Part shown: positions 1 to 18,248 of the stretch, one piece after another
How positions within the stretch are numbered: position 1 is the first letter of the stretch
How the letters are laid out: every line of letters begins with the position of its first letter
Assembly (NCBI GenBank): GCA_963676565.1
Contig: OY781089.1
Location: 3,104,001-3,168,000, forward strand
Direction: 5' to 3'
Length of the DNA stretch: 64,000 nucleotides
Origin: Halarcobacter sp.
Lineage (GTDB): Bacteria > Campylobacterota > Campylobacteria > Campylobacterales > Arcobacteraceae
Position numbers and translations under genes: made by a program
Notes under the pieces: generated by a model
Seen by the model: the letters and a program-made list of their open reading frames with translations, nothing else
The model's database searches: none
Told to the model about the DNA's origin: nothing

Positions 1-1330
1 TAACTTCTGCATCATCAATCACATTCATTGATAGTTTTATATTATGATAATTTAAAGAACTTTTAATAATGAAGTGAGCTTTTTCACAAGTATATTTTAC
101 ATTAAAGATTTTCTTTGCCTCTTCTGGTCTAAAAAAGTTTTGAAAATCAGATATAGTTTGGGTCATATATAAAGTCAAAGCATCAGCTTCATCTATTTTT
201 TCTTCTAAATACTCTTTTGTAAATTCATTAAATTCATATGTTGCAAGCATATTCATATGAATAGCAGAAATCTCACTTAAAGGTTGTCTCCATTGATGTG
301 CAATATTTCCAATCATCTCTCCCATTGAGGCTAGTTTTGATTGCTGTATTAGAATCTGTTCTTGTTCCATTCTTTTATCTATCTCTTCTTGAATTTTATA
401 TTCTAGGTTATCTATCATATCATTCATCATAATTTTTAATTCATTTAAAATTGCACTATCAGATTTTTTTGTAAGTCTCATACCAAGGTTTCCACCTTTT
501 ATATTTTTTAAAACTTCTGTAGCATCTTTTATTAGAATCTCATTCTTTTTAATATTATCTTCAACATTTTGGAAATTTTGATTAATAGATTCTGCCATTT
601 GGAAAAACTCATCTTTAGAGTGAATTATAATTTTTTGTGCTTTATCCTTTTTATAATTTAGATACTCAAAAAATTCATTTAAACCCCTTTGAACAATATT
701 TAAAGAAGTTATAATATTGTTTGAAACAAGCCAACCTGCAATAATAGAAAATAGCATTACAACAAGAAAATAAATAGCCACTTCTATTATCAATGATTTT
801 GATTCTTCAACAGCTTTCATATAAGAATTTTCTACTTCATTTAAAAGTTCACTTTGAATAGAAAGTAAATGATTCATCAAAAGGTCAAAATGTTTTTTAT
901 CTTTTGTTGAAACATTTATATATGCCCCTTCTTCAAAGCCTCTTTTTAAATATGCTTGTGTTCTTTCAATAACCTTTTTATAGTTATTCCACAAAATAGA
1001 TGTTTTTTTATTTTCTATTTTAATTTTCAAAAAAGAGTTATCAAGTTTTTCTACTAAAAGATTTATATCTTTTTGAATTATTGATCTTTGTTTTTTATTC
1101 GGAGCAATTACAATTGACTGATTTATTCCTCTTAATTTATATAGTGGAGCTATTATATTATCTTGCAAAAGTAAAGTTTTTTCAGATTGAATATAAACAT
1201 CTTTTAATCTATCTTTTGCTTTTTCACTTGTATTTATTGAAATCCATCCAAAAATAAAAACAGAACAACATAAAATTATAAAAAGAATACTCAATTTTGC
1301 TTTGATATTAAATCTATCAAACAGTTTCAT
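1..1330 (-). CDS. Membrane-bound sensor histidine kinase (helical periplasmic sensor, HAMP-like region, HisKA); C-terminus runs off the window edge
   Basis: Not in the ORF track. ATG at 1330 overlaps the upstream TAA. Translates MKLFDRFNIKAKLSILFIIL... with two TM segments and H-box QQSKLASMGEMIGNIAHQWRQPL; frame open to position 1. Confidence 0.9.
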   Translation of the reverse strand, partial: MKLFDRFNIKAKLSILFIILCCSVFIFGWISINTSEKAKDRLKDVYIQSEKTLLLQDNIIAPLYKLRGINQSIVIAPNKKQRSIIQKDINLLVEKLDNSFLKIKIENKKTSILWNNYKKVIERTQAYLKRGFEEGAYINVSTKDKKHFDLLMNHLLSIQSELLNEVENSYMKAVEESKSLIIEVAIYFLVVMLFSIIAGWLVSNNIITSLNIVQRGLNEFFEYLNYKKDKAQKIIIHSKDEFFQMAESINQNFQNVEDNIKKNEILIKDATEVLKNIKGGNLGMRLTKKSDSAILNELKIMMNDMIDNLEYKIQEEIDKRMEQEQILIQQSKLASMGEMIGNIAHQWRQPLSEISAIHMNMLATYEFNEFTKEYLEEKIDEADALTLYMTQTISDFQNFFRPEEAKKIFNVKYTCEKAHFIIKSSLNYHNIKLSMNVIDDAEV

Positions 1331-2973
1331 TATTTAATCCTTAGGGGTACTATAGGTGTATGAAAATCGATAGGATACTTTTTCTCTTCTCTTACGGACC
1401 AATGGTTTTTCGTAATTTTTGTTTTCCATAGTGGAGCAATCCCTCCTGCATATGGTTCATATATAACTTCTTTATTAACAGCAATTACTTTATTATGAGA
1501 AGGAACTCTTAATGTATAAGCCATATCTCTAGCTCTATTTAAAATTTTAGAAACAATATCTTCATAACTTGAACTATTTATTTTTGTAGTAAAAAATTCA
1601 TCTATGTACTCTTTCATAAACTTGTCATTTGGAATAATAGACCAAGGAGAGTCATTTTCATAAATAAACATTACTGTCCAAGGGTTTTGGTAATACCAAT
1701 CATCATCACCCCAAGCTAACAAATCCCAACTTTTGGTATTTTTTGAAGATCTTGTATTTAAAAGTTGCTCATAAATATCTTTTTCACTAGTGGTAACATC
1801 ATAAACTAATTTCACACCATATTTTTCAAGTTGATACTCTATTCCTCTCCATAAAAACATAAACCTATCTTGAGTAAAAACATTTAATACTAATCCATTT
1901 AATAATTGATGTTTTTTTTCTTCTGACATGGTATGAGTTTTATACTCATTTTTTTTTGCAATCTCTTTTACCACTCTAAAGTTTATTGATGTAGCAAAAG
2001 GGGATATTGTTCCTTCTTTTTTATAAATAAAATTTAAAATATTTTCTTGATTTATTGCTTCATTTAACGCTAATCTTATCTCTTTATTTGCTAGTTTTTT
2101 ATTTCCATTTATAAGATTGAAAAATATAATAATATTATTGGTTGATTCTTTTATCACAAGCTTTGAATATTTTGACATCACAGCTTCAATTTTTTTATCA
2201 AAAGGGATTGGGGAAACATCAAGTCTACCCTCATAATTTACTACATTCTCAAAAGCCTCTTCTGTATTAAGTTGAGTATATACTGTAACTTTTTTTATTT
2301 TTGGATACTGTTTATCCCAATAATATGGGTTTGCTTCTAAAACTATCTTTTCTGTTTGTTTTTTACCAACAGCATAACCACTTTTTAATATATAAGGTCC
2401 CATCCCATAAGGTCCAGGTTCTTGAGTTCCAGTTTCAGTCTCTTCAGCTTTTGTTGGATACTTCTTTAAATACTCATCTGTAAAGAAAAAAACCCTTGCA
2501 AGGTCTGTAAAAAAAAGTTCATATTTTTGTTTCAATTCTATTTTAAGTCTATATTCATCCACTTTACTTATCTCAAAATCAATTTTATCTACATTTGAAA
2601 ATAAAAAAGGATTCTTTTTAAAATGATTAAGGTTGTTTATTGCAGAATCAATTGTAAAGGGCGTCCCATCTTGAAATTTTAGATTTCTTTTTATTTCAAA
2701 TATATAAGTATAGTCATCAACTCTTTCATGTGACTTTGCTAAATCATAAACCCAACCTCTTTCATTATCATCAGAACGAATTAAACCTGCATTTGTATTT
2801 TTTGAAATATAAATATAAGGGATACTTGGGAAAAAAACTTTTATATGAGATTTTGGATGCATATATTCAATGGCATTTGAAGAAGAAGTATCTTCTTTAA
2901 AAATCTCATCATCAAGAGCATTTGAATAAGAAAAAGCTAGAATAGCAACTAAAATAAAAAATGTTCTAACCAA
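1330..2973 (-). CDS. Periplasmic solute-binding protein, family 5 (DppA/OppA/NikA-like)
   Basis: Signal peptide; family-5 motifs LAKSHERVDDYTYIFEIKRNLKFQDGTPFT, GMGPYIL, LEANPYYW, IRLALNEAIN. Confidence 0.85.
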   Translation of the reverse strand: MVRTFFILVAILAFSYSNALDDEIFKEDTSSSNAIEYMHPKSHIKVFFPSIPYIYISKNTNAGLIRSDDNERGWVYDLAKSHERVDDYTYIFEIKRNLKFQDGTPFTIDSAINNLNHFKKNPFLFSNVDKIDFEISKVDEYRLKIELKQKYELFFTDLARVFFFTDEYLKKYPTKAEETETGTQEPGPYGMGPYILKSGYAVGKKQTEKIVLEANPYYWDKQYPKIKKVTVYTQLNTEEAFENVVNYEGRLDVSPIPFDKKIEAVMSKYSKLVIKESTNNIIIFFNLINGNKKLANKEIRLALNEAINQENILNFIYKKEGTISPFATSINFRVVKEIAKKNEYKTHTMSEEKKHQLLNGLVLNVFTQDRFMFLWRGIEYQLEKYGVKLVYDVTTSEKDIYEQLLNTRSSKNTKSWDLLAWGDDDWYYQNPWTVMFIYENDSPWSIIPNDKFMKEYIDEFFTTKINSSSYEDIVSKILNRARDMAYTLRVPSHNKVIAVNKEVIYEPYAGGIAPLWKTKITKNHWSVREEKKYPIDFHTPIVPLRIK

Positions 2974-3649
2974 TTTTATATCCTATCCCAGAAAGATTAT
3001 TTATTATATTTGTAGGTAGTTTTTTTCTTAAATGTAAAACTACAGAGCGTAAAGCACTATCTGTCATAACAAGTTCTTGCCAAACCTTATCTTGTAATTC
3101 ATCATAGGTAACAACTCTATTTTGATTTTGCATTAGTAACTCTATAAATCTAATCTCTTTTTTATTTAAAACTATTATCTCACCTTTGTATTTTAGTTTT
3201 TTAATACCAAAATCGTAAGTATAGTTTTCATCACTTTCTAATTTAATTACTTCATTAATATTTAATGATTCAATACACTTTCCTAAAGTTTCAAAAAGCA
3301 TTTTTGTAGTTATTGGTTTTACAAGATATTTTTCCATATGTAACTCTACTGCTTCTAATAAATATTTCTTTTCTGTATGTGCAGTAATCATAACTACAGG
3401 AGTGGTTTTATCGACTTTTCTTACTTCTTTTATAAACGTGATCCCATCCATTAAAGGCATATGTATATCACTTAAAATAATATCAGGTTTTTTTTCAAAA
3501 TAAAGGTCTAAAGCTTCTTTTCCATTTGTTGCTTCATAGACTTCTTTTGAGTAATATCTAAGTGTTTTTAAAATGTTTTTTCGTATACCATCTTCATCTT
3601 CTGCATAAAGAATTCTCAAAGGTTTTAATTGTAATTTTACGTTATTCAA
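2966..3649 (-). CDS. OmpR-family response regulator
   Basis: REC domain (AEDE, DIHMPLMDG, KP) plus winged-helix C-terminus (GIGYKI). Confidence 0.92.
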   Translation of the reverse strand: MNNVKLQLKPLRILYAEDEDGIRKNILKTLRYYSKEVYEATNGKEALDLYFEKKPDIILSDIHMPLMDGITFIKEVRKVDKTTPVVMITAHTEKKYLLEAVELHMEKYLVKPITTKMLFETLGKCIESLNINEVIKLESDENYTYDFGIKKLKYKGEIIVLNKKEIRFIELLMQNQNRVVTYDELQDKVWQELVMTDSALRSVVLHLRKKLPTNIINNLSGIGYKIG

Positions 3650-3667
3650 AATCTTCTCCTAGTTGTA

Positions 3668-3710
3668 AAACTTTTTTTATTATACCAGCGAAACTTTTTT
3701 TATTATACCA
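3668..3710 (-). promoter_or_regulatory. Exact 20-bp tandem duplication, each copy containing an extended -10 element (TGGTATAAT on the minus strand)
   Basis: AAACTTTTTTTATTATACCA at 3668-3687 and 3691-3710, upstream of the response regulator. Confidence 0.65.
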
Positions 3711-3819
3711 AATAAAAATTAAACCAATAAATTAAGACAAATTTAAAAAAATAGCAAAATATGTATTTTTTTGCGATTTTTTTCCATTAGAATTAAGGAA
3801 ATCAAAACAAAGGAAAGAT

Positions 3820-4107
3820 ATGCGAAAAATATTATTTACGGCATTAATTTTATTTCAAGCTTCTATGTTTGCTGATGCAGCTACTGCATTTAAAGCTTGT
3901 GTAGCTTGTCATGGAGCAAATGGAGAAAAAGTGGCACTTGGTAAAAGTAAAATCATCAAAGACATGAGTAAAGAAGATTTCATTAAAGCAATGAAAGGTT
4001 ATAAAGATGGAACTTATGGAGGACAACTAAAAGGTATGATGAAAGCTCAGGCTGCTAGATTAAATGATTCTGATATTGAAGCAATTGCAGAGATGATAAC
4101 AAAATAG
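3820..4107 (+). CDS. Periplasmic monoheme cytochrome c (c553-like)
   Basis: Signal peptide, CVACH heme motif, distal Met in GMMKAQ. Confidence 0.92.
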   Translation: MRKILFTALILFQASMFADAATAFKACVACHGANGEKVALGKSKIIKDMSKEDFIKAMKGYKDGTYGGQLKGMMKAQAARLNDSDIEAIAEMITK

Positions 4108-4120
4108 AAAGTAGGAAAAA

Positions 4121-4678
4121 ATGGAAGCAGTTAAAAGTAATGATTTTTCACAAAGACTAGAAAAGGTATTAATCTTAAAAAATATATTTTCAAGTAAAAA
4201 TGAAGATGAACTATTCAAAGCTTTTTCAGAATTAAATAGTGGTTTAGAAGTTGATAAAACAACTCTTGAATCAGATTTCAATCGATACTTTATAGGTCCG
4301 GATGCTCCAATAGCTCCTCCATATTCATCGGTGTATATTGATAAAACTGATTCACTTATGACAGAAACTACTCAAAAAGTAAGAGATCTTTATGAAATCA
4401 TGGGCTTTAAGAATAAGTTAAAAAATTCTATTCCTGAAGACTTTTTAGGTTTAGAGTTGGATGCTTATTATCAACTACTTTTCATTGAAGAGAAAACTAA
4501 CTATTTATCTGAGATTAGATGTTATTTTTTATTTGAACATATTAAAGTTTGGATTTACGACTTTATAGAGGCTGTGTTATCAAATAAAGATAATCCTTCT
4601 GATGCAATAAATTATATTGTTCAGGAATTAAAATTGTTTTTTGACAACGAATTTAAATACGAAGGAGATTTAAAATGA
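4121..4678 (+). CDS. TorD/DmsD-family molybdoenzyme maturation chaperone
   Basis: FIGP..APPYSSVY and PEDFLGLEL motifs; lies directly upstream of a Tat molybdoenzyme. Confidence 0.88.
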   Translation: MEAVKSNDFSQRLEKVLILKNIFSSKNEDELFKAFSELNSGLEVDKTTLESDFNRYFIGPDAPIAPPYSSVYIDKTDSLMTETTQKVRDLYEIMGFKNKLKNSIPEDFLGLELDAYYQLLFIEEKTNYLSEIRCYFLFEHIKVWIYDFIEAVLSNKDNPSDAINYIVQELKLFFDNEFKYEGDLK

Positions 4679-6954
4679 ATTACGTAAAAGAAAATGTAGA
4701 CTCAATTTTAAATGATGGAGTAAACAGACGTGGGTTTTTAAAAGGACTAGCTGCCTGTGGTGCATTATCTATGTTTCCAGGTGGAAACTTATTGGCTAAT
4801 GAATCTTTAAATACAAAGATTCCTTATTTAGGTAAAAAAAGTTATACAACTTTTAGAAATGCCTGTCCAAGAAACTGTTATGACACTTGTAGTATCAAAA
4901 CATTTGTAAAAGATGGTGTAATGCAGTTTATTGAAGGTGCAACAGAATCAACATATACAAGAGGTGGTTGTTGTGTAAAAGGAAACTCATATGTAAGAAG
5001 AGTTTATTCTCCTAAAAGAATCAAATACCCAATGTTACAAGTAGGTGGTAAAGGTTCTGGTTCTTGGAAAAGAATCTCTTGGGATGAAGCTATTAGCAGA
5101 ATTGGTGACAAACTTCTAAGTATGAAAAAAGAAGATGGACATATGCTAGGCGCTGCACTTACAAAATACTCTGGAAACTTTGGTATTACTCATTACGGTG
5201 TTGAAGGAATGTTTAGTTCTATTGGATATACAACAAGATTTGGTGGAACTCCATGTTGGCCAGCAGGTATTGATGCACAAAATTTTGATACAGGTAATAT
5301 GTGGTGTAATGACCCAGAAGAAATGAAAGATAGTAAATATATCATTCTTTGGGGAGTTAATCCAGCTTCAAACTCTGTTCATAGTATGAAATATATCTAT
5401 GAAGCAAAAAGAAAAGGAGCTAAAGTTATTGTAATTGATCCATTATTTACAGAAACTGCTTCTAAAGTAAATGAATATTATCAAGTTAAAGCTGGAAGTG
5501 ATGGCTTATTAGCTTTAGCAATGGCAAAAATCATTGTTGAAAATAACTTGCATGACAAAAAATGGCTTAAGAAAAACTCTCACGGATATGATAAATTTGA
5601 AAAATATTTAAAAACTATATCAGTTAAAGAAGCTTCTGAAGTAAGTGGTCTTTCAGAAAAAATGATAAAAGAGATTGCACTAGGTTTTGCAAAAGCAGAT
5701 CCTGCAACAGTATGGATTGGATATGGTATTCAAAGACATACAAATGGTGGTTCTATGGTTAGAGCTATTGATGCACTAGTAGCAGTTACTGGAAATGTTG
5801 GTAAATATGCAGGTGGAGCTAGATATGGACACTTAAATACTTGGGGATTTAATTACAATGCAATGACAAATCCTAAACCAGAAGGAAGTATTGGTTATAC
5901 AGGTTCAGCTAAATCTATGGGTGATATTCATGGTGGTGGAGAAGGTGATCATAAAGTTAAATATTCTGATAGATATCTAAATATTAACAAAACAGCTGAA
6001 GGTATTTTAACAGCAACAGATCCAAAAATCAAACTTTTATGGGTTGCATGTAAAAACCCATTAGCTCAAGATTTTGATAGAAATAAAATTATTAAAGCAT
6101 TTAATACTGTTGATATGATAGTTGTTGCTGATCAATTCTTTAACGAAACTACAAAATGGGCAGATATTGTTCTTCCTGTAACAACGCAGTTTGAAGAGTA
6201 TGATGTAAATGTGTCTTATTGGCACTATTGGTTAAGCTTAAATGAACAAGCAATTAAACCACTTCATGAAGTAAAATCTGACCTTGAAATTGCATCATTA
6301 TTATCTAAATATATGAATAAAAAAGAGGCAGGTTCTTGTACTTTCCCTCAAAAATATGATAGTAAAAAGTTAACTATTAAAGAGTTTAACAAAGGTATAT
6401 ATGATCAATTTGGAATTAAATCTTGGAAAGAATTACAAGATGGTCCAAAAAAAGCTAAAGCAGTAATTCCTTTTGCTGATGGAAAATTTAATACTCCAAG
6501 TGGTAAATTTGAATTCTATTCTGAAAAAGCTGTAGAGTACGGACACACTGCATTACCTGAATATTTAGAAGTTAGAAAACCTTATGATAAATATAGATTA
6601 ACAACTCTACACTGTAGATATTCTTTACATTCACAATTCCAAAATTTAGATTGGATGGAAGATATTCATCCTGAACCATTTGTTTATGTGAATCCAGAAG
6701 ATGCAGAATACAAAAGAATTAAAACTGGAGATACTGTAGCAGTATTTAATAAACAAGGTCTTTTAAGACTTAAAGCAAAAGTTACTGATAATACACCAGT
6801 TGGAACATTTATGATGTATGAACAGTGGTACAACAATAGTATTTATAATGTAAATGAATTAGTTGATGATACATCTTCTGACATGGGATCATTTAAAACA
6901 GGTGCACCTGGAATTGCACTACAAGATACTTATGTAAATATAAGAAAAGTATAA
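4675..6954 (+). CDS. Tat-exported bis-MGD molybdopterin oxidoreductase catalytic subunit (DMSO reductase superfamily), substrate unknown
   Basis: Twin-Arg NRRGFLK; FS0 motif CPRNCYDTC...CVKG; RISWDEA; WGVNPA; ADIVLP; C-terminal molydop-binding region (VNPEDA); candidate Cys ligand in TPCWPAG. Confidence 0.92.
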   Translation: MNYVKENVDSILNDGVNRRGFLKGLAACGALSMFPGGNLLANESLNTKIPYLGKKSYTTFRNACPRNCYDTCSIKTFVKDGVMQFIEGATESTYTRGGCCVKGNSYVRRVYSPKRIKYPMLQVGGKGSGSWKRISWDEAISRIGDKLLSMKKEDGHMLGAALTKYSGNFGITHYGVEGMFSSIGYTTRFGGTPCWPAGIDAQNFDTGNMWCNDPEEMKDSKYIILWGVNPASNSVHSMKYIYEAKRKGAKVIVIDPLFTETASKVNEYYQVKAGSDGLLALAMAKIIVENNLHDKKWLKKNSHGYDKFEKYLKTISVKEASEVSGLSEKMIKEIALGFAKADPATVWIGYGIQRHTNGGSMVRAIDALVAVTGNVGKYAGGARYGHLNTWGFNYNAMTNPKPEGSIGYTGSAKSMGDIHGGGEGDHKVKYSDRYLNINKTAEGILTATDPKIKLLWVACKNPLAQDFDRNKIIKAFNTVDMIVVADQFFNETTKWADIVLPVTTQFEEYDVNVSYWHYWLSLNEQAIKPLHEVKSDLEIASLLSKYMNKKEAGSCTFPQKYDSKKLTIKEFNKGIYDQFGIKSWKELQDGPKKAKAVIPFADGKFNTPSGKFEFYSEKAVEYGHTALPEYLEVRKPYDKYRLTTLHCRYSLHSQFQNLDWMEDIHPEPFVYVNPEDAEYKRIKTGDTVAVFNKQGLLRLKAKVTDNTPVGTFMMYEQWYNNSIYNVNELVDDTSSDMGSFKTGAPGIALQDTYVNIRKV

Positions 6955-6964
6955 GGAGGAAGTT

Positions 6965-7600: not shown

Positions 7601-7617
7601 TAAGATAAGGATATATA

Positions 7618-9694: not shown

Positions 9695-9710
9695 AATCTT
9701 TTCCTTTTAA

Positions 9711-10274: not shown

Positions 10275-10291
10275 CTCTTCTTCCTTTAACA

Positions 10292-10371
10292 CCTTTTAAA
10301 AGAATCTTTAGTTAAATTTTAAAAACTCTTTTAAAAAGTTGGCTTTACTTTTTTGTAAAGCCTACTTTTTT
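10292..10371 (-). repeat. Intergenic double-hairpin element, copy A (downstream of dddY)
   Basis: GGCTTTAC-N6-GTAAAGCC hairpin adjoining a CTTTTAAAAGA...TCTTTTAAAAAG hairpin; similar to 11689-11766. Confidence 0.6.
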
Positions 10372-10372
10372 A

Positions 10373-11623: not shown

Positions 11624-11642
11624 TTTAAGTCCTTTTATTATC

Positions 11643-11675
11643 TAAAACTTGATATTACAAAAACATCAAGTTTTA
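11643..11675. promoter_or_regulatory. 11-bp perfect inverted repeat just upstream of the dddY start
   Basis: TAAAACTTGAT-N11-ATCAAGTTTTA. Confidence 0.45.
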
Positions 11676-11688
11676 AATTTAATTTCTT

Positions 11689-11766
11689 CTACTTTTTAAA
11701 AGAATCCTCGCTTACACTTCAAAGATTCTATTAAAAAGTAGACCTTACTTCTTTTAGTAAGGTCTT
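11689..11766 (-). repeat. Intergenic double-hairpin element, copy B (upstream of dddY)
   Basis: CTACTTTTTAAAAGAATC...GATTCTATTAAAAAGTAG overlapping GACCTTAC-N8-GTAAGGTC. Confidence 0.6.
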
Positions 11767-11773
11767 GAAATAA

Positions 11774-12448
11774 TTAACCTACTGGTTTGTGTTCTACATG
11801 TTTTTTATGTAGTTCTTGCTCGTCTTTAATAACGCCATATTTCTTATACTTTTCTTGAACTTTAAGTTTTTCTTCTTCCATTTCATAACGATAAATCTCA
11901 TGCTCAGGTTTATAATAATTTAAAACATTTTTTAAATTTTTATGTCCAGCATCGAAATGGCATGAAGCACATGAAACTTGTTTTTCTGTTCCTTTAAGTT
12001 TTGTATAATGGTTATGCATTTTTTGAGCTTGTTTTGATAAATTTACTAAATTTTTGTCAAATGCATTTCCATGACACTCTATACAACCAGAATCATAAAC
12101 ATAAGAATCTCTATGTTTAAGTTTCTCTACCCAATCTATCTCATCTGGATTTCCAAAGAAGTGAATACCAACTTCTAAAACTCCATTTTTCGCTTTTGTA
12201 AATATATAGTTAACTAAACTATCATGTGGTAAGTGACAATCTACACATTTTGCACTGGCACCTAATTTTCCAGATCCACCATGAACGTCTTGTTTATAAG
12301 CGATAACCATAGGATCCATTTCATGACATGAAACACAAAATTTTTCACCACTTGTTTTGTGAATCCCATAATAAGTTCCATAAGAGACAGAAACACCTAC
12401 TAATCCACCTAGGAATAATAATCCAATTATAAATAATACTGGTCTCAT
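11774..12448 (-). CDS. NapC/NirT-family membrane tetraheme quinol dehydrogenase
   Basis: N-terminal TM; CVSCH, CVDCH, CIECH, CASCH; ATG 12448 overlaps the upstream TGA (ATGA). Confidence 0.9.
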   Translation of the reverse strand: MRPVLFIIGLLFLGGLVGVSVSYGTYYGIHKTSGEKFCVSCHEMDPMVIAYKQDVHGGSGKLGASAKCVDCHLPHDSLVNYIFTKAKNGVLEVGIHFFGNPDEIDWVEKLKHRDSYVYDSGCIECHGNAFDKNLVNLSKQAQKMHNHYTKLKGTEKQVSCASCHFDAGHKNLKNVLNYYKPEHEIYRYEMEEEKLKVQEKYKKYGVIKDEQELHKKHVEHKPVG

Positions 12449-12906
12449 GGTGTTTTCCTCATCCAAACATTGTTTTTAATCTCTTTTTCATGGCATTCCG
12501 CACACATATTTATAGAAGGCTCATGTTCTCTATGGCATTCGTCACAATAAAGATTTGGTCCATCATGAACAGAGTTATGAGGATTTGCTTTATGTGTGTC
12601 CATAAAAGCTAAACGTTCAGCTAAATATACTTTTGTTTTATGACATGATAAACAAGCTTCTTCTCCTGCCGCTTCAAAATGCTCAGGATCTTTTCCTTGG
12701 TCTACATGACAAAAAACACATTCAAGAGATAGACTTTCATGTACACTCTTTAGTGGATACTTTTCTTTTTGCTCAGGTGTAACAGTTACCATACTCTCTT
12801 CATCTTGGGGGAAAGGCAAGCTTTCCCCATCATTTGCTTGTGCAAATACATAAAAAGATAAAAGTAAAATAGACATGCCACCTATTACTTTTATTATTGT
12901 TTTCAT
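12445..12906 (-). CDS. Periplasmic tetraheme cytochrome c (heme subunit of a split flavocytochrome c)
   Basis: Signal peptide from ATG 12906 (MKTIIK); CVFCH, CLSCH, CDECH, CAECH; NPHNS.H motif. Confidence 0.9.
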   Translation of the reverse strand: MKTIIKVIGGMSILLLSFYVFAQANDGESLPFPQDEESMVTVTPEQKEKYPLKSVHESLSLECVFCHVDQGKDPEHFEAAGEEACLSCHKTKVYLAERLAFMDTHKANPHNSVHDGPNLYCDECHREHEPSINMCAECHEKEIKNNVWMRKTP

Positions 12907-12908
12907 AA

Positions 12909-14447
12909 TTAGATATTTTCTCCTGCAACCATACCAAATACTAAACAATCAGGAATTGAACAACTTCCAAGTCTACTTGCTCCGTGTGTTCCACCTGTAA
13001 TCTCACCAGCTGCATAAAGACCAGGAATTGGTTTTTTAGTTGCTCCAGAGATAACTTCTGCTTTTGTATTGATTTTTAATCCACCCATTGTATGGTGAAG
13101 TTTTGGTACACCTCTAGTTCCATAGAATGGAGCTTTAATAATTTGTACACCTTCAGTTTTTTCAACTGGTTTACCAAATTCTGTATCTTTATTTGCTTTT
13201 ACATATTTATTATATGAATCAATTGTTGCTTGTAATTCAGCTGCTGGGATTTTATACTCAGCTGCTAATGCAGCAACTGTATCGAATTTTTTAACAACAC
13301 CAGATTTTAAAGCTTTTTCAGCAATTTCTGGAATAATTTTGTCAACAGCTGCTTGATCACAAATATTAATTGGATATGCATTAGTCTCTTTTGTTACTTT
13401 GAACATTGCTTGTGCTCTTGTTCTTCTATCTGCAAGCTCATTCATGTATCTTTTACCTGTTTTAGGATTTACTGAAATACCATATCTAAATGTAGCATTG
13501 ATATTGAAGTTAGATGCTGCACCAAAACCTTTTTCATCTGGACAAGCCCAAGGACCAAATTGAATCCAACTTAAATGAACAGGAACTGCACCAAGCTCAA
13601 ATGCTTTCATTAACACACCAGCAGTTGCTCCTGGTTGGTTAGTTGAATCTGTATCAGCAGGGATTCTTGGGTCTTGTTGTTCTCTTAAGAATTTATCTCT
13701 ACTAAATCCACCTGCTGCTAAAATAACACCTCTTTTAGCTTTATAGTATTTTACTTTACCAGTTGTATTTTCAGAATCATCATCGTTAGCATTATTATCA
13801 AATTTATAACCTTCTCTAACTTGAATTCCAACTACTCTTCCACTATCATCTAATACAAACTCATCAAATTTTGTTCTTTTTTTGATTGTTCCATTTGAAA
13901 GTTTTTGGAAGTGAGAAATCATTGGTAATACAATACCTGATCCACTACCATTTGAAGAAAGATATGTTCTAGGAACAGAGTGTCCACCTAAGTGAGAAAG
14001 TTTCTCATAGAATTTTGCACCAGCTCTTTCAACTAGTTTTAAAGCATCATTTCCTCTTTCACCAATTACTCTAAGTAAATCAGGGTGATTAATATATCTA
14101 CCTGCTTTCATACTGTCTTCCATATAAATGTCGATAGAATCTTTAATACCTTCTTTTTTCTGTTTAGGGTTATTAACAACAGCTAAAAGTCCACCATTAA
14201 TTACAGAGTTTCCTCCGATTCTTCCCATTTTTTCAACAATAACAACTTTTAAACCTTTTTCAGCAGCTGTAATACCAGCTGATAATGCAGCATAACCAGA
14301 ACCGATTACAACAACATCATACTCTTCGTCATACTTAACACCTTTTGAATCAACAGCCATTGCATTTGCAGCTGTACTTCCAAGTGCTATCATACCAGCA
14401 CCAACAGCACCCATTCTCATAAAATTACGTCTTGTTATATCACCCAT
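12909..14447 (-). CDS. Tat-exported flavocytochrome c flavoprotein subunit, probable acrylate/methacrylate-type reductase
   Basis: TRRNFMR Tat motif; GSGYAA FAD fold; GGHSVPRT; HHTMGG; HGASRLG; QFGPW replaces the fumarate-reductase QxHPT. Confidence 0.85.
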   Translation of the reverse strand: MGDITRRNFMRMGAVGAGMIALGSTAANAMAVDSKGVKYDEEYDVVVIGSGYAALSAGITAAEKGLKVVIVEKMGRIGGNSVINGGLLAVVNNPKQKKEGIKDSIDIYMEDSMKAGRYINHPDLLRVIGERGNDALKLVERAGAKFYEKLSHLGGHSVPRTYLSSNGSGSGIVLPMISHFQKLSNGTIKKRTKFDEFVLDDSGRVVGIQVREGYKFDNNANDDDSENTTGKVKYYKAKRGVILAAGGFSRDKFLREQQDPRIPADTDSTNQPGATAGVLMKAFELGAVPVHLSWIQFGPWACPDEKGFGAASNFNINATFRYGISVNPKTGKRYMNELADRRTRAQAMFKVTKETNAYPINICDQAAVDKIIPEIAEKALKSGVVKKFDTVAALAAEYKIPAAELQATIDSYNKYVKANKDTEFGKPVEKTEGVQIIKAPFYGTRGVPKLHHTMGGLKINTKAEVISGATKKPIPGLYAAGEITGGTHGASRLGSCSIPDCLVFGMVAGENI

Positions 14448-14503
14448 AATAGGTCTCCTTCTAAAAAATTTATAAGGAATCTTAATACAAATAAGTAATC
14501 AAA

Positions 14504-14533
14504 AAATAACCTTTTAGGGTAAAAAGGTTATTT
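14504..14533 (-). terminator. Probable intrinsic terminator after the two-component genes
   Basis: AAATAACCTTTT-N6-AAAAGGTTATTT ending in a T-run on the minus strand. Confidence 0.55.
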
Positions 14534-14573
14534 ATTTTAAAAAAAATGAATAATTGTTCAGTTTAAGCAGAAA

Positions 14574-15266
14574 TTAATGTGTACTTCTAATTTTGTATCC
14601 ACAACCAGATACATTTTCAATGATGTCATTATATGTTTTTTGACGTATTTTTTTTATTCTCATTCTAAGTGCTTCAATGCTCATACTTTTTTCTTGCCAA
14701 GCATAACTCTCTATTGTAGAATAATCAACTATTTTATCTATATTTGAGATTAATAAATGAAGAATCTCCATCTCTAATTTTGTTAACTTAACAGTCTCTT
14801 CATTTGAATTTATCAATTGCTTTGAATTTTTATCATAGGTAAAACCAAATTTTAGTTGAACTCTAAAATTATATATATCTTTTGTTGCCATAAGTAAAGA
14901 GGTTTGTAAATCTTCAATCACAATTGGTTTTCTTAAATAGTTATAAGCACCCTCATTGATGCTTTCAGAGATATTTGAGGGGGTATCGTAAGAAGTAATT
15001 ATAATAACTGGTAAATGGGGAGAAACTTCATGCATAGCATGTACCATATCTAAACCATTCATTTCTGGCAAGTTTATATCTGATATTACAATATCAGGTT
15101 TAAATTGTTCAAACATCTCAAACCCTTCTATACCATTTTTTGCTACATCTACACGTTTACAATGTAGTCCTAATGCTTGCCTTAAAGCAAAAGATGTTGC
15201 TTCATCATCTTCTACAATTAATACATGTATTTGAGAAAGTTTTTTTAATACTTTTAAATCAATCAT
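14574..15266 (-). CDS. OmpR-family response regulator
   Basis: VEDD, DINLPEMNG, KP; winged-helix tail GCGYKI. Confidence 0.92.
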   Translation of the reverse strand: MIDLKVLKKLSQIHVLIVEDDEATSFALRQALGLHCKRVDVAKNGIEGFEMFEQFKPDIVISDINLPEMNGLDMVHAMHEVSPHLPVIIITSYDTPSNISESINEGAYNYLRKPIVIEDLQTSLLMATKDIYNFRVQLKFGFTYDKNSKQLINSNEETVKLTKLEMEILHLLISNIDKIVDYSTIESYAWQEKSMSIEALRMRIKKIRQKTYNDIIENVSGCGYKIRSTH

Positions 15267-17253
15267 TATTATCCTTTATTTTTTTAGGGAAAGTAAATAA
15301 AAAAGTTGTTGGATTTTCATAAGATAATATAGTCAAATCTCCATAAAGTTTATTTCTAGCAATTAATCTAGATAAATAAAGACCATTACCTGTTCCATTT
15401 TCCCCTTTTGTAGTTTTAAAAGCTTCAAATAGAGTTTCACGAATACCAACTTTAATTCCTAAACCATTATCTTCAATTCTTAAATGGTATTTATCTTCAA
15501 GCTCTTTTATTGTGATTTTAATATACTTATTCTTTTTATTTTTATCATCAAGTAAAGAGTCTCTTGAATTCAGAACTAAGGCACTTATTATTTGTTGGAA
15601 TTCATTTTTATAGCTGTGGCATTCAAATTTTATTTTTTCATGAACTACGCTAATATCAATCCCTGAATTTTTAAAATGTGGTTCAAGTATTATTTTTGTA
15701 TCTTCTATAGCTTTTATAATATCAAAAGATTCGATTTTTCTACTTGGAAGATAAAAATTTTTAAAGGTATCAATTGTATCAGAAAGATAATGGGTACTAG
15801 ATAAAACACGATTTAGGTTATCTTTAAATATCTCATCACTTAAACATTCCATCTCTTTAAATTGTAAAGTGTTACCTATAAGTAAAGATATAGAGTTTAA
15901 AGGTTGCCTCCATTGGTGAGAAATTGCACCAATCATTGCTCCTAAATCTGCCATTTTAGTTTGTTGGAATAAAATATCTTCCTGCTCTTTTTTTAACTTT
16001 TTAGCTGTTTCATTTTTAGTAACATCTTCTACAAAAAAGATAACTCCTTTATACTCTTTGTTTGCATCTAAGACAGGAATAGAAGTAAAAGATAAAAAAA
16101 CTTTTTCTTTTTTTTCAAAAAAATGAAAAGTATTAGTATATGTTTTATGATTTTCTTTTGTTGCTTTTAATTGTTTAGTAATACAATCAGTTATCCATAT
16201 AGGAACCCTTCTAAAAAGTTTTGTACACTCAAGTAAATTCCTATCTAAAAGTTTATTTTCTGAAAGACAAAGTAATTTAGAAAACTCATTATTATAATAT
16301 GTTACTTTTTCATTGTCATCTGCAATTAAACATCCTCTTATATCTGATGCGAGGAATTGTTTTATTAAGTTTTTTGATATTTTTAATTTTTCATCACTTA
16401 GTTTTTGAGTTCTATTATAAAATAAATTCAACCATAAAAATATGATCATACTTATTCCATATAAAGTAAAATTTATTTTTAATTGAAAATCAACTCTTTC
16501 GTAAACTTTTTCTTTATTTAACTCAGATATAAGATACCAATTACCATATTTAATGAATCCTTGAGAAAAAATACTATTCTTTGTAACAGTTAACCGGCCT
16601 TTTTTGTCAATTTTTTGATTAAATCTTTTAAATCGTTTCTTTTTATCTTTATGTACTAATATTTTTTTGTTTTTATCTAATAAAAAAACATTCCCATCAT
16701 AGGGTAAAGATATCTTTAAAATCTCTTTTTCTATATACTCCAAAGGAAGAATACCACAAACTACTCCGGTTTGACCTCTTTTTGCTTTTGTAGTACTACA
16801 AACTGCAACTACCAAAGTATCAATTATAGATGAAACATAGGGATTTGTAATTGTTATATCTTCATTTCTTATAGTCTCACGATACCAAGGCATTGATATA
16901 GTGTTATATGTAAGAGGCTTTATAATTGTTCTACTAGATATAATTGAATTGTCTTCATAACCAACAAACATATAGGGGAAACCTGCAACAGAGGAACCAT
17001 GTTCCAGTAAACTTCCAATACTGTATTTATCTTGTTTATGATCCATATTTGAGATAAGTGCTTCTACATTTTTTACTGCTTGTATTTTTTCTTCTGTCCA
17101 CTTTACAATTTGTTTAGAAGCATTGTTAATTGCATTTACTTGTAAATCATTAATTGCATTTTTTAGAATATAAAGATTAATAAAATAATTTGCAAGTACC
17201 AATATAAGAAAAAGCATACTAACAAATAAAATAAACAGTGTACGTTTTGACAA
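15259..17253 (-). CDS. Sensor histidine kinase (dCache, PAS, HisKA, HATPase)
   Basis: Two TMs around a Cache domain (PWY...NPY); PAS-like region; SHQWRQPL; EDNGLG; GTGNGL. Confidence 0.9.
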   Translation of the reverse strand: MSKRTLFILFVSMLFLILVLANYFINLYILKNAINDLQVNAINNASKQIVKWTEEKIQAVKNVEALISNMDHKQDKYSIGSLLEHGSSVAGFPYMFVGYEDNSIISSRTIIKPLTYNTISMPWYRETIRNEDITITNPYVSSIIDTLVVAVCSTTKAKRGQTGVVCGILPLEYIEKEILKISLPYDGNVFLLDKNKKILVHKDKKKRFKRFNQKIDKKGRLTVTKNSIFSQGFIKYGNWYLISELNKEKVYERVDFQLKINFTLYGISMIIFLWLNLFYNRTQKLSDEKLKISKNLIKQFLASDIRGCLIADDNEKVTYYNNEFSKLLCLSENKLLDRNLLECTKLFRRVPIWITDCITKQLKATKENHKTYTNTFHFFEKKEKVFLSFTSIPVLDANKEYKGVIFFVEDVTKNETAKKLKKEQEDILFQQTKMADLGAMIGAISHQWRQPLNSISLLIGNTLQFKEMECLSDEIFKDNLNRVLSSTHYLSDTIDTFKNFYLPSRKIESFDIIKAIEDTKIILEPHFKNSGIDISVVHEKIKFECHSYKNEFQQIISALVLNSRDSLLDDKNKKNKYIKITIKELEDKYHLRIEDNGLGIKVGIRETLFEAFKTTKGENGTGNGLYLSRLIARNKLYGDLTILSYENPTTFLFTFPKKIKDNND

Positions 17254-17477
17254 AATAAAGCCTTTTATTATTAGCTTTCGGAATTATAGCTTTTCATTAA
17301 TTTTATATATCTGAAAAGAAAAGTTATTTTTTAGTCATTTTAAGTTGATATAGTTAAAAAATTGAAAAAAAGTTTTCTTAAATCTTTTTCTTAATAATTA
17401 ATTATGAAAGTTTCTGTATAGTTTCATTTTAGAAACATAGTATGTTTTAATATAAGTAAGAAAGGCAAACTACAGTA

Positions 17478-18248
17478 ATGTTTAAAAAGAGGAACTCCCT
17501 ATATTTTTTTATTATCTTTTTAATCACAACAATATTTATAATACAATATTTACAAATAAAAGAAGATCAAGAAAAGAAAATAATACAATCACTTAATAAG
17601 CAATCTTTAAATCTAGACGCATGGTTGTTAAAAAAGAAAAATTTTCTTGAAAAATTGTCGAAAGATTTAGGAAATATGGATTATGACAAAGAAACTTATT
17701 TAGATTTAATGAAAGACACAAATAAAAAAATGGGTACAAATAGTATTTTTAGTGGTTTTAAAAATGGAGAATACATTGATACCCAAGGATACTGGATAGA
17801 TAATTTTGACCCAAGAAAAAGACCTTGGTATATAGAAACTTTACAAAACAAAGAAACTACTTTTTCTGGACCAATGTATTATAATGATATTAGTGGTCAA
17901 CAAATTGTTTGGTGGGCAATTTCATCAGTTCTCTCAAAAGACAATGAACCTTTTGGAGTAGTTAGTAGTGAAATACTCCCAGATATGATTATTGAGCATT
18001 TAAAAAATATTCAACTAGATGATTTAGAACATATTTTTTTATTCCATAAAGAAACAGGAATTATTATATCAGCAATTAATAGAGATATAGAATTAAAATA
18101 TGTTCAAGACATATTTTCTGTAAGAATTTTTGAAAAATTTCAAAATACAAATGAAACAAAAATAGAATTTAAATATAAAAATCAATCTAAAACTGCCTAT
18201 AAGGCTCATTTAACTGAAGCGCCTTGGATACTTTGTATTATCAAATAA
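17478..18248 (+). CDS. Stand-alone membrane-anchored dCache_1 sensor-domain protein
   Basis: One N-terminal TM; FDPRKRPWY...GPMYYND; protein ends (PWILCIIK) with no second TM or output domain. Confidence 0.8.
   Translation: MFKKRNSLYFFIIFLITTIFIIQYLQIKEDQEKKIIQSLNKQSLNLDAWLLKKKNFLEKLSKDLGNMDYDKETYLDLMKDTNKKMGTNSIFSGFKNGEYIDTQGYWIDNFDPRKRPWYIETLQNKETTFSGPMYYNDISGQQIVWWAISSVLSKDNEPFGVVSSEILPDMIIEHLKNIQLDDLEHIFLFHKETGIIISAINRDIELKYVQDIFSVRIFEKFQNTNETKIEFKYKNQSKTAYKAHLTEAPWILCIIK

Follow-up and report, generated by a model that had tools for sequence, protein, structure and literature searches.

A dddY–acrylate reductase cluster and an adjoining molybdoenzyme operon with a predicted selenoprotein in Halarcobacter: probably two separate respiratory cassettes

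In a Halarcobacter sp. genome, genes for cleavage of DMSP, an osmolyte of algae, and for acrylate reduction directly adjoin an operon for a molybdoenzyme and a small selenoprotein. Does this region work as one DMSP-respiration island, or does it hold two systems that are merely neighbours? The window analysed here is a stretch of 64,000 nucleotides (contig OY781089.1, positions 3,104,001 to 3,168,000), and the features in question lie in its first 18,248 positions (Table 1). The region was best explained, with a probability of roughly 0.72 for the whole account of both parts, as two self-contained periplasmic respiratory cassettes which abut in this species only: cassette 2 at 2-8027 and cassette 1 at 8037-18248.

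All genes named in an earlier sequence-only reading of this DNA were recovered by ORF, Pfam and NCBIfam analysis, in the order and orientation it had given. The + strand operon runs from the cytochrome c through the TorD/DmsD-type chaperone, Mo subunit and FeS subunit to a TGA-ended ORF, and the sensor genes of cassette 2 (regulator, SBP_bac_5 protein and histidine kinase) lie upstream of it and divergent. The two converging operons of that reading were borne out in genes and orientation, but the - strand operon may represent three transcription units, because terminator-like hairpins flank dddY on that strand (11765-11740 and 10362-10341); these came from a consensus scan only, which found 7 sites versus 5.0 +/- 2.5 expected.

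Table 1. Genes and RNA element of the two cassettes, with positions in the window
Feature	Position	Strand	Evidence and remarks
Sensor histidine kinase HK1, 4HB_MCP-like periplasmic module + HisKA	2-1330	-	Pfam, NCBIfam
Periplasmic SBP_bac_5 solute-binding protein (SBP5)	1330-2973	-	PF00496 1.9e-34
OmpR-type response regulator RR1	2966-3649	-	Response_reg + Trans_reg_C; conserved beside Mo operon
Monohaem class I cytochrome c, signal peptide	3820-4107	+	PF00034; one CXXCH
TorD/DmsD-family Tat proofreading chaperone	4121-4678	+	PF02613 6.8e-22
Catalytic bis-MGD Mo/W subunit, 759 aa	4675-6954	+	Tat motif; Fe4S4, Molybdopterin, Molydop_binding domains
DmsB-like four-cluster ferredoxin (FeS) subunit, no own signal peptide	6965-7600	+	PF13247
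Small secreted selenoprotein (predicted), 136 aa, Sec118 at TGA 7969-7971	7618-8027	+	In-frame TGA, reads on to 8027
SECIS-like hairpin, 6 bp, 3-nt loop, 13 nt after TGA	7985-7999	+	13-sequence comparison
Membrane-anchored rhodanese-homology protein	8037-8579	-	PF00581 2.8e-08; 0 Cys
ribBA-type DHBP synthase, partial cyclohydrolase II domain, extra copy	8639-9694	-	NF006804 539 bits, cut-off 432; three copies in genome
ribA GTP cyclohydrolase II, extra copy	9711-10292	-	NF001591 258.9 bits, cut-off 148; four genome copies
dddY, periplasmic DMSP lyase	10373-11623	-	NF053571 759.8 bits, cut-off 650
NapC/NirT-type tetrahaem membrane quinol dehydrogenase	11774-12466	-	PF03264 1.1e-31; 4 CXXCH
Tetrahaem cytochrome c3, ArdB-like	12445-12948	-	PF14537; 4 CXXCH
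Tat-exported FAD flavoprotein, ArdA-like acrylate reductase subunit	12909-14447	-	TIGR01813 457.9 bits, cut-off 285.45; Tat motif
OmpR-type response regulator RR2	14574-15266	-	Pfam; 91-92% identical in G047, G048, G051 dddY cassettes
dCache-PAS histidine kinase HK2	15259-17253	-	Pfam; 83% identical in sister-genus cassettes
256-aa membrane protein, dCache domain only	17478-18248	+	Pfam; conserved edge of dddY cassette

The earlier reading had proposed that one co-evolved locus uses both products of DMSP cleavage, with the Mo/Se enzyme oxidising DMS or reducing DMSO. The cassettes are indeed only 9 bp apart, and their junction was also present in contigs from two other public runs (X6 record 3, spanning 5378-9169 with 12 differences, and X7 record 10, spanning 3902-9176 with 31 differences and 2 gaps). 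The junction is therefore not an assembly artefact; the adjacency is stable in the species, so co-regulation of both cassettes here is possible. Moreover, the cassette 2 sensor and those of TorA/BisC-type reductases are paralogues, the Mo subunit has DmsB- and DmsD-like partners, and some sources call its relatives 'DMSO reductase'. The distribution of the genes, however, argued strongly against an integrated island. Among 184 genomes of the family, DddY scored above the model cut-off in 7 and a Mo subunit orthologue (E <= 1e-100, 89-93% identity) was found in 7; both were present in this genome only, that is, in 1 of the 13 genomes carrying either one. The Mo cassette was syntenic in all six other carriers of the same genus (G092, G099, G100, G102, G103 and G107), none of which has dddY, and neither dddY nor ard genes were found in the 11-20 kb fetched around it. 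Likewise, dddY was beside none of 80 loci that encode a Mo subunit relative, drawn from several phyla and searched over up to 8 kb of flank on each side, and records of Chloroflexota, Desulfobacterota and Deferribacterota commonly include members of the Mo clade. In three sister-genus genomes (G047, G048 and G051) the dddY-NapC-c3-ArdA-RR2-HK2-dCache cassette was kept in synteny, and the Mo, rib and rhodanese genes were absent from it. The Mo subunit also scored far below the cut-offs of the DmsA/YnfE model (TIGR02166, 280 versus 777.7) and of the type II DMS-dehydrogenase-like model (248.5 versus 984.75). These results suggest that the Mo cassette is functionally unconnected with DMSP; a DMS or DMSO link from DMSP is not supported, and the integrated island is very improbable. 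The Mo operon is unlinked to dddY elsewhere, which the sequence-only reading had itself named as evidence against its proposal, and its reservation that the two might adjoin by chance is the more convincing view.

Of the two self-contained cassettes, cassette 1 is, judging from its gene content, the already described kind of cluster in which dddY accompanies a flavocytochrome acrylate reductase. In the periplasm, DddY would split DMSP into DMS and acrylate. Menaquinol electrons would then pass via the NapC/NirT-type tetrahaem protein to the Tat-exported ArdA-like flavoprotein and its ArdB-like tetrahaem partner, which would reduce acrylate to propionate, and the dCache/PAS kinase with its regulator would switch the cassette on. 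In the flavoprotein, Gly replaces the fumarate-binding His365 of Fcc3, and R402, H504 and R545 are kept. A second dddY copy is present in the genome (G000:C1:3285533-3286717), and the 256-aa dCache protein is 52-53% identical at the same place in the three sister-genus genomes. With its three genes in a row, for a flavoprotein, a tetrahaem cytochrome and a NapC/NirT protein, the cassette resembles FccABC, the periplasmic (meth)acrylate-reducing flavocytochrome system of Wolinella succinogenes. Our flavoprotein is 59% identical to a protein listed in sources as W. succinogenes flavocytochrome c, and the two have the IQFGPW and FRYG motifs in common; we know of no DMSP lyase attached to FccABC.

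The association of DddY with a quinol-linked, acrylate-reducing flavocytochrome, which the earlier reading had also recognised, was supported and is already published. Bertsova et al. 2024 (10.1101/2024.02.11.579808) showed DddY beside a periplasmic flavocytochrome that passes quinol-derived electrons to acrylate (Shewanella woodyi ArdAB), state the same dddY neighbourhood for Arcobacter genomes, include Gly at the His position in the ArdA signature, and predict that S. woodyi dddY is not co-transcribed with the ard genes. The present cluster is like that of S. woodyi in that DddY adjoins an FAD subunit exported via Tat and a tetrahaem cytochrome that is a separate protein exported via Sec, in the Gly replacing the fumarate C1-carboxylate His, and in that dddY is probably transcribed apart from the ard genes, as the terminator-like hairpin suggests. 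It differs in having a NapC/NirT quinol dehydrogenase gene within the operon, a dCache/PAS two-component system where a single transcriptional regulator is listed for S. woodyi, no acuI nearby and, after dddY, ribA/ribBA and a gene for a Cys-less rhodanese. Flavin demand is probably covered by the additional ribA/ribBA pair. This idea of flavin supply gains a measure of support from the present genome but is not borne out by conservation in the sister genus, where the rib genes are absent from beside the dddY cassette, a point against the best explanation. The rhodanese-like gene noticed downstream is present, but its product has no Cys at all and is therefore an inactive fold, not a catalytic sulfurtransferase; in other genomes the gene was found beside neither cassette.

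Cassette 2 encodes what is, from sequence comparison, one of the DmsAB-type bis-MGD enzymes of a clade that spans phyla and is uncharacterised. No NCBIfam family reached its cut-off for the Mo subunit, which is 'MopB_3' in one UniRef name. Subunit identity across phyla is 57-64%. The TorD chaperone adjoins the Mo subunit in 77 of the 80 loci, the FeS subunit was found in 76, and a DmsC-type anchor lies 3' of the latter in 28 of the 80, a feature of non-Campylobacterota loci. The monohaem cytochrome c was detected by tblastn at 13 of the 80, within the first 16 loci (L030-L045) except for L078 and L083. HK1, the C-terminal part of which runs off the window start, keeps its place beside the Mo cassette in genomes of the same genus and in Sulfurospirillum.

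The Mo subunit would be loaded and proofread by the TorD-type chaperone and exported via Tat, with the FeS subunit carried along. In Campylobacterota the monohaem cytochrome c, the probable electron donor, would stand in place of the quinol-oxidising DmsC anchor of other phyla, so the enzyme is most likely a soluble periplasmic terminal reductase fed by the cytochrome c pool. Alternatively, it could be a dehydrogenase oxidising a reduced sulfur, arsenic or organic compound, since periplasmic dehydrogenases usually pass electrons to cytochrome c, and here such a cytochrome lies in the operon and the window has no quinol-oxidising anchor. We consider this improbable: the DmsC-type anchor 3' of the FeS subunit in the 28 loci is the layout of a quinol-oxidising reductase, the relatives come mostly from records of anaerobes, and a Rieske or haem b subunit is absent.

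The substrate of the putative reductase would be sensed by the solute-binding protein, kinase and regulator, the SBP_bac_5 protein probably acting as the ligand sensor for HK1. Sensing for a Mo reductase also depends on a binding protein in TorT-TorS-TorR, which likewise combines a periplasmic solute-binding protein, a kinase and an OmpR-type regulator beside a periplasmic Mo reductase operon. In contrast to that system, the binding protein here belongs to family 5 (peptide/nickel/opine type), and the kinase, which is not of the hybrid type, senses through a four-helix bundle. With E. coli DmsABC and YnfEFGH plus DmsD, the enzyme shares a bis-MGD subunit that contains an Fe4S4 domain and is exported via Tat, an FeS subunit with four clusters, and a DmsD/TorD chaperone, and its relatives from other phyla share the DmsC anchor. 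It departs from DmsABC in the low TIGR02166 score given above and in a TIGR02951 score of 144.8 for the FeS subunit, below the cut-off of 214.1, in having cytochrome c and no DmsC in the window, in the residue that likely binds Mo (below), and in an additional Sec/Cys subunit.

This additional subunit had been called a putative selenoprotein, and the comparison upheld it. The ORF up to the TGA encodes 117 aa (7618-7971). The in-frame TGA is kept in 15 of the 80 related loci with a conserved reading frame beyond it, and in these 15 the following 18-22 codons are conserved as protein (UAGVQVASLA / UGGILVASLA). Cys occupies the aligned Sec column in all 19 table-11 rows aligned, L034 included, and the Cys homologues read through the same motif (KSSCGG) to the same end point. 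In the SECIS-like hairpin five pairs were invariant across 13 sequences, the sixth being AU in 7, UA in 5 and CG in 1; these compensatory changes are synonymous and fall at third codon positions. The genome holds complete Sec machinery (tRNA-Sec, selA, selB and two selD genes). The protein matched no family in Pfam or NCBIfam and is modelled as an Ig-like beta-sandwich whose last beta-strand is formed by the post-TGA residues (pLDDT 96-97). Gene callers end at the TGA, 10 of 12 database relatives are 117 aa long, and the hairpin could act as an RNA element, all as expected if TGA 7969 were a true stop with a terminator or other RNA element conserved downstream. Such a stop is hardly credible in view of the protein-like conservation after the TGA, the Cys homologues that continue, the modelled last strand and the Sec genes. 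The conservation pattern indicates that the product of 7618-8027 is a genuine Sec protein.

Complex prediction for the pair from L034, whose partner naturally has Cys, yielded a median score of 0.72 (runs 0.80, 0.72 and 0.00), and the controls gave 0.00 as best of 3. Among solved complexes 116 of 157 reached the docking mark, versus 2 of 215 mismatched pairs, a calibration that holds only roughly because the docking alignments were our own. The runs agreed in at least 30% of contacts, with a partner pLDDT of at least 66, and the predicted interface joined partner residues 110-116 (with Cys113) to the 191-197 loop of the Mo subunit. The Sec/Cys loop of the small Ig-like protein is thus predicted to dock on the catalytic subunit, at the funnel. 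Five genomes whose loci showed no partner were tested, and the protein was absent from four of them (Citrobacter and three Chloroflexota), indicating that the partner is not essential to catalysis.

As a committed but tentative guess, the selenol or thiol of the partner may bind a sulfur or selenium acceptor covalently and present or relay the adduct at the Mo site; polysulfide, thiosulfate/tetrathionate-type or selenium species would be candidate acceptors. Precedent is offered by Sud (Wolinella, with polysulfide reductase) and SoxYZ (with SoxCD): Sud and SoxY are small periplasmic proteins with one reactive Cys that present covalently bound sulfur to a molybdoenzyme, and SoxY is an Ig-like sandwich with a Gly-flanked Cys. 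On the other hand, no sequence or specific fold match to either was found for the selenoprotein, the Campylobacterota partner uses Sec, and its reactive residue lies in a hairpin before the last strand, not in a C-terminal arm.

The Mo site itself bears on a further alternative, which we regard as unlikely though less so than a dehydrogenase: a stand-alone S-/N-oxide reductase (for DMSO, TMAO, methionine sulfoxide or a related compound), apart from DMSP, with the Sec/Cys protein as a structural or protective funnel cap. Cys194 of the Mo subunit, in a GTPCWPAG loop, is invariant and is likely the Mo ligand in place of Ser. Sequence does not fix this assignment, as alignments differ: one sets the formate-dehydrogenase Sec opposite G190, and the other sets the Ser of S-/N-oxide reductases, which we take to be their Mo ligand, opposite A197. 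Neither candidate position has Ser or Asp, the curated S-/N-oxide models were missed by a wide margin, and to our knowledge a reactive Sec/Cys partner has no precedent among these reductases. In favour of such a reductase, a DmsC anchor and DmsD/TorD chaperone go with the enzyme in other phyla, and regulator-SBP5-kinase trios flank two enzymes of the TorA/BisC type in this genome, the first of which passed both the bisC_fam (1137.4 versus 1017.55) and TorA (913.3 versus 909) cut-offs and the second of which fell just short (988.9 versus 1017.55). The SBP5 proteins of these trios are the closest paralogues of the cassette 2 sensor (62% and 44% identity), which counts against the best explanation, and the DmsB-, DmsC- and DmsD-like partners point to an S- or N-oxide and against a sulfur or selenium substrate.

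The gene content of the window (G000:C1:3104001-3168000 in the numbering of its genome, handle G000, a single contig of 3.34 Mb) was assigned by ORF calling and family scans, and every gene named in the sequence-only reading was recovered. The DNA is AT-rich, with a G+C content of about 23-34%. The left part holds two cassettes, a Mo-enzyme set (cassette 2, 2-8027) and a set of dddY with flavocytochrome genes (cassette 1, 8037-18248); folE, type II secretion genes and housekeeping genes lie to the right. The junction of the two cassettes was spanned by contigs from two other runs at about 99% identity. The adjacency in G000 is real, and it is specific to this species. A promoter scan gave 80 sites versus 81.8 expected and was uninformative.

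Features of the two cassettes, and related sensor loci elsewhere in the same genome
Feature	Position	Strand or orientation	Basis
Kinase, four-helix-bundle sensor	2-1330, cut by window edge	divergent, upstream of Mo operon	
SBP_bac_5 protein (SBP5)	1330-2973	divergent, upstream of Mo operon	family scan
OmpR-type regulator	2966-3649	divergent, upstream of Mo operon	family scan
Monohaem cytochrome c	3820-4107	+	one CXXCH and signal peptide
TorD/DmsD-type chaperone	4121-4678	+	family scan
Mo subunit, 759 aa	4675-6954	+	twin-arginine motif; Fe4S4, Molybdopterin and Molydop_binding domains
Ferredoxin (FeS) subunit, 17 Cys	6965-7600	+	family scan
Partner, 117-aa ORF with signal peptide, TGA at end	7618-7971	+	ORF calling
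Membrane-anchored rhodanese-domain protein, N-terminal membrane helix	8037-8579	-	family scan
ribBA-type gene	8639-9694	-	family scan
ribA	9711-10292	-	family scan
dddY	10373-11623	-	NF053571
Tetrahaem NapC/NirT	11774-12466	-	family scan
Tetrahaem c3	12445-12948	-	four CXXCH
Tat flavoprotein	12909-14447	-	PF00890; twin-arginine motif at residue 6
Regulator of cassette 1	14574-15266	-	family scan
dCache/PAS kinase	15259-17253	-	family scan
dCache-only protein, 256 aa, closes the region	17478-18248	+	family scan
SBP5 trios with reductases	L111 (G000:C1:545001-558000); L112 (G000:C1:2546001-2560000)		

The stretch had been proposed to be one integrated DMSP-respiration island, with the Mo/Se enzyme possibly acting on DMS/DMSO or a related organosulfur compound. 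The check named for this proposal, co-occurrence and synteny of the Mo operon with dddY across genomes, came out against linkage. Among 184 genomes of the family Arcobacteraceae, DddY scored over its cut-off in seven (G000, G047, G048, G051, G097, G101 and G168), with fragments in three more, and Mo subunit orthologues (E <= 1e-100; identity seen 89-93%) were also present in seven (G000, G092, G099, G100, G102, G103 and G107). G000 alone carries both, and DddY had no match in the six other Mo carriers, whose genomes are 95-100% complete. The order kinase-SBP5-regulator, then on the divergent side (cytochrome c)-TorD-Mo-FeS-small protein, is kept in these carriers where the stretch allows, and none of the cassette 1 genes occurred in the stretches fetched around their Mo cassettes, two of the six contigs stopping inside or just past the regulator gene. 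In a wider scan of 80 Mo loci, TorD was found beside the Mo gene in 77 and the FeS gene in 76, a flavoprotein fragment in one, and dddY in none within up to 8 kb on each side. The integrated-island reading failed the check proposed with it, and gene distribution indicates a Mo cassette without a tie to DMSP. All members of the set, with regulator, SBP5, kinase and cytochrome c among them, are kept in Sulfurospirillum-type records, where their order is different. The FeS gene of Desulfobacterota, Chloroflexota and a Citrobacter record is followed by a gene for a DmsC-type anchor (PF04976), and PAS/GAF kinases of the HisKA_3 type stand there in place of the sensor. Downstream of the Mo operon, an FmdE-domain protein with a DksA/TraR-type zinc finger was grouped by clustering at 10 loci (named are L052, L056, L058, L061, L066, L071, L072, L082 and L091), in some cases together with an NMT1_3-type binding protein; both genes possibly serve cofactor or metal supply.

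The identity of the Mo subunit was examined against curated families, and no family cut-off was reached in the NCBIfam scan. The candidates rejected were formate dehydrogenase (280.8 vs cut-off 666), the DmsA/YnfE DMSO-selenate reductase subfamily (TIGR02166) with DmsB and DmsC (A 280 vs 777.7, B 144.8 vs 214.1, no DmsC gene in window positions 1-8600), the type II DMSO reductase family (TIGR03479, covering DMS dehydrogenase and selenate/chlorate reductase; 248.5 vs 984.75), thiosulfate/polysulfide reductase PhsA/PsrA (234.6 vs 694, no NrfD-type gene), TorA (169 vs 909), respiratory arsenate reductase ArrA (102.8 vs 1600) and tetrathionate reductase TtrA (56.1 vs 1750). The third gene of the Mo operon encodes an Ig-like Sec protein and not the haem b gamma subunit of type II enzymes. 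Solved relatives were all distant (best E-value 2.7e-47). The subunit shares 75% identity with Sulfurospirillum proteins and 57-64% with those of other phyla, the sample covering Campylobacterota, Desulfobacterota, Chloroflexota and Deferribacterota with a further relative in the Citrobacter record; identity at this level across phyla suggests that the clade may use a common anaerobic electron acceptor. One relative is named 'MopB_3 family' in UniRef, and in the available part of PMC13524816, a paper on the DmsA_EC clade, MopB_3 is merely a tree label. The literature searched on Sulfurospirillum molybdopterin oxidoreductases, selenocysteine, selenoproteins and SECIS gave no description of the enzyme or of its partner. 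Sequence alignments disagreed on the position of the Mo ligand, setting the Sec of formate dehydrogenase opposite G190 and the Ser-ligand position of TorA-type enzymes opposite A197. Between these two lies Cys194, in a GTPCWPAG loop that is invariant in the relatives, and this residue is a candidate Mo ligand.

Given that a DmsC anchor is present elsewhere and a cytochrome c here, the layout points to a terminal reductase; a dehydrogenase, which would run the enzyme in the opposite sense, is improbable. Cassette 2 is a variation on the DmsAB(C) theme, as yet uncharacterised, whose Sec/Cys partner had not been named before. A stand-alone S- or N-oxide reductase is given more weight than a dehydrogenase. 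The SBP5 protein has two paralogues in G000 (62% and 44% identity); both belong to regulator-SBP5-kinase trios, and next to each trio stands an S-/N-oxide reductase of the TorA/BisC family with a TorC-C-terminal-type cytochrome. One of these two reductases passed the bisC_fam and TorA cut-offs, and the other fell just below bisC_fam. This paralogy hints at an oxide-type ligand and keeps a DMSO-like substrate alive as a stand-alone function; with the cassette's own Mo subunit far below the TorA cut-off, we regard the oxide reductase as rather unlikely. The trios also indicate that kinases dependent on a binding protein serve several periplasmic Mo reductases of the lineage, where the pairing of a kinase with a family-5 binding protein appears to recur as a design. 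Three ligand-binding proteins of such sensors are thus available in one genome and could be screened in vitro.

The small gene that ends the Mo operon had been called a putative selenoprotein, and this was confirmed on several lines. When the TGA at 7969 was read as Sec, the ORF was extended from 117 to 136 aa. The window and 15 of the 80 loci (L030-L033 and L035-L045) keep the TGA together with the 18-22 codons after it, and Cys stands at the aligned column in 19/19 table-11 rows, including the same-genus locus L034, leaving the Sec/Cys column invariant. In L034 and the other-phylum homologues, this Cys lies within the motif K-S-S-C-G/A-G. Only five columns were invariant in the 30-row partner alignment, namely P65, G67, G102, Sec/Cys118 and G120. 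A short 6-bp hairpin was found 13 nt past the TGA in 13/13 sequences, with one covarying pair (AU 7, UA 5, CG 1) in which both sides had changed through synonymous third positions, indicating a hairpin of SECIS type with putative SelB binding. The genome also has the Sec machinery, with tRNA-SeC, selB (298.8 bits vs 242.25), selA (562.4 vs 267.9) and two selD genes over cut-off. Each selD has one in-frame TGA (L012, G000:C1:1992297-1993211; L013, G000:C1:1958723-1959640), and G000 thus encodes two selenoprotein selenophosphate synthetases.

A member of the partner family was found at 46 of the 80 Mo loci (35 fall in one cluster and 7 in another of shorter members, 3 were recognised by their motif, and 1 came from a genome search). 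Pfam and NCBIfam gave no family for the Sec reading or for four Cys homologues, and a profile search of 1.84 billion representatives gave 221 matches at E <= 0.001, mostly of 100-190 aa. The predicted structure (pLDDT 90.9, pTM 0.73) consists of a signal peptide and an Ig-like sandwich, with residue 118 in the turn before the last strand. Foldseek returned no partner match in the PDB at E <= 0.001; VIA-align over 48,161 chains matched generic Ig, filamin and PKD folds with a Z of at most 7.8, which the tool counts as background and above which SoxY, Sud and metal-binding folds did not stand out, and the ESM Atlas gave only 'hypothetical protein' and PKD-like clusters for a natural Cys homologue, with recognition below the tool's mark. 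In a few very long proteins (P0254, P0260 and P0273; 1586-2560 aa) there are 10-18 matches to the sandwich portion of the profile and none to the Sec/Cys hairpin; the domain is also a repeat in large surface-type proteins. At L034 the partner (L034:10930-11322, also recorded as L019) is 34-36% identical and has Cys for Sec, and the Mo subunit is 89% identical to that of the window; the L034 partner has either been replaced or has changed far more rapidly than the enzyme.

For complex prediction, L034 supplied a pair that carries Cys naturally, with Mo subunit residues 46-759, partner residues 17-131 and an alignment for each. The median score was 0.72 (runs 0.80, 0.72 and 0.00) and the best of three controls 0.00; the mark was reached by 116/157 solved complexes and 2/215 mismatched pairs, a calibration weakened by the self-made alignments. 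The runs showed contact agreement of at least 30% and partner pLDDT of at least 66. On the partner side, the predicted interface comprised residues 110-116 (K110, S112, C113 and G115), and on the enzyme side 165-210 (which takes in the 191-197 loop and its invariant Cys), 388-401, 515, 569-576 and 740-743. A good number of these enzyme positions stay invariant even where a lineage lacks the partner, which fits a site at the substrate funnel where the partner would dock. We also considered a Mo ligand supplied in trans by the partner. Since the partner was absent from the whole genome in four of the five genomes tested whose loci showed none, and Cys194 is invariant, this idea was set aside. 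The partner is tentatively read as a selenol or thiol that handles the substrate, the acceptor being a sulfur or selenium species; the chances of this are clearly less than even. Taking enzyme, partner and sensor together, the most far-reaching interpretation, to which we give a probability of roughly 0.3, is a phylum-spanning uncharacterised respiratory Mo clade whose funnel is served by a dedicated Ig-like protein with an invariant Cys (Sec in Campylobacterota), and which acts on or through a chalcogen adduct on the protein selenol/thiol. This would be a carrier-coupled bis-MGD reductase together with a new bacterial selenoprotein family. The sensor of the enzyme would also be one of a family of kinases, dependent on solute-binding proteins, which Arcobacter relatives employ with several periplasmic Mo reductases. 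Carrier coupling, if true, would be a new working principle for the superfamily. The Mo arm is the more valuable part compared with the DMSP arm, and the partner, being without a Pfam or NCBIfam family, offers a direct handle on the substrate of the Mo enzyme.

For cassette 1, the placing of DddY beside flavocytochrome and cytochrome genes held up. DddY scored 759.8 bits on NF053571 (cut-off 650) over its full length (1-395 of 395), the genome search agreed, and its N-terminus, MAYKKKLGAVIVLFSFISCNAL, is hydrophobic and signal-like by inspection. The flavoprotein passed the flavocytochrome c model (457.9 vs 285.45). In the available text of 10.1101/2024.02.11.579808, ArdAB of S. woodyi, encoded beside dddY, is a periplasmic acrylate reductase that supports anaerobic growth dependent on DMSP, the route from DddY lyase through acrylate to the flavocytochrome is shown for Shewanella, Arcobacter is named among carriers of dddY-linked flavocytochromes, and in these proteins the C1-carboxylate His and Thr/Ser are changed to Gly and Tyr. 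The ArdAB layout is present here, a Tat FAD_binding_2 subunit and a separate tetrahaem cytochrome c adjoining dddY. Against Shewanella Fcc3 structures, the flavoprotein keeps R402, H504 and R545 and has Gly opposite His365; IQFGPW and FRYG are common to it and its relatives. The conserved Tyr of FRYG lies nearby, yet the pairwise alignment sets Ile opposite Thr377, and the Tyr equivalence is therefore ambiguous. The best 120 matches listed for the flavoprotein included no Shewanella entry, so any such entry would be less similar to the query than these. The dddY gene lies 150 bp past napC, and terminator-like hairpins flank it on both sides in a consensus-match scan, fitting the published prediction that dddY stands outside the ard operon (available text of 10.1101/2024.02.11.579808). 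By its sequence features, cassette 1 is a newly found member of a known system, whose flavoprotein would reduce acrylate. Electrons would pass from menaquinol through NapC and the tetrahaem cytochrome to FAD, and sensing would be performed by the dCache kinase. To a pathway so far shown only in Shewanella, the DMSP arm adds a member from the Campylobacterota that brings a quinol dehydrogenase and a sensor of its own. Respiration of DMSP without oxygen is relevant to the release of DMS in the sea.

The order dddY-NapC-c3-flavoprotein-regulator-kinase-dCache recurs in the sister genus (G047, G048 and G051) at 72-92% identity, the dCache protein at 52-53%. That last protein has a membrane helix and a dCache domain without an output domain, and is kept at the same cassette edge in all three. 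The family has 11 full-length dddY loci; 9 of these were examined, and 4 of the 9 carry ard genes. A second dddY in G000 (L027:8668-10811) adjoins an enoyl-CoA hydratase gene, a pair also found in G101 (L026:9337-11520); this is a cytoplasmic acrylate-handling context distinct from the ard cassette. Two dddY genes are recorded for Arcobacter nitrofigilis in the available part of PMC3338564. Partial or split DddY matches below cut-off (G087:C1:2926856-2927227, G093:C21:125221-125973 and G156:C2:301842-301955) look like gene remnants.

The genes at the dddY end of cassette 1 were compared separately. The rhodanese-domain protein (180 aa) has no Cys and thus lacks the catalytic residue of a rhodanese sulfurtransferase, and its gene lies beside neither cassette in the other genomes examined. 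The sister-genus cassettes have pyruvate kinase after dddY and are without rib, rhodanese or Mo genes, and the proposed link of the flavin-synthesis pair to the flavocytochrome is absent there. G000 has three ribBA and four ribA copies. A paralogous module at G000:C1:3093727-3100108 (L110:7718-14120), 4-10 kb left of the window, has the order flavoprotein-c3-NapC-Trans_reg_C regulator-OprD-family porin-ribA-ribBA. A flavocytochrome module with an extra rib pair therefore occurs twice in G000, supporting flavin supply in this genome. The flavoprotein of the paralogous module is of the Tat type, 53% identical to the ArdA-like one, and has Gly at the fumarate-His position (QGPW). The module probably encodes another 2-enoate reductase of the non-fumarate kind, provided with a porin and a rib pair of its own.
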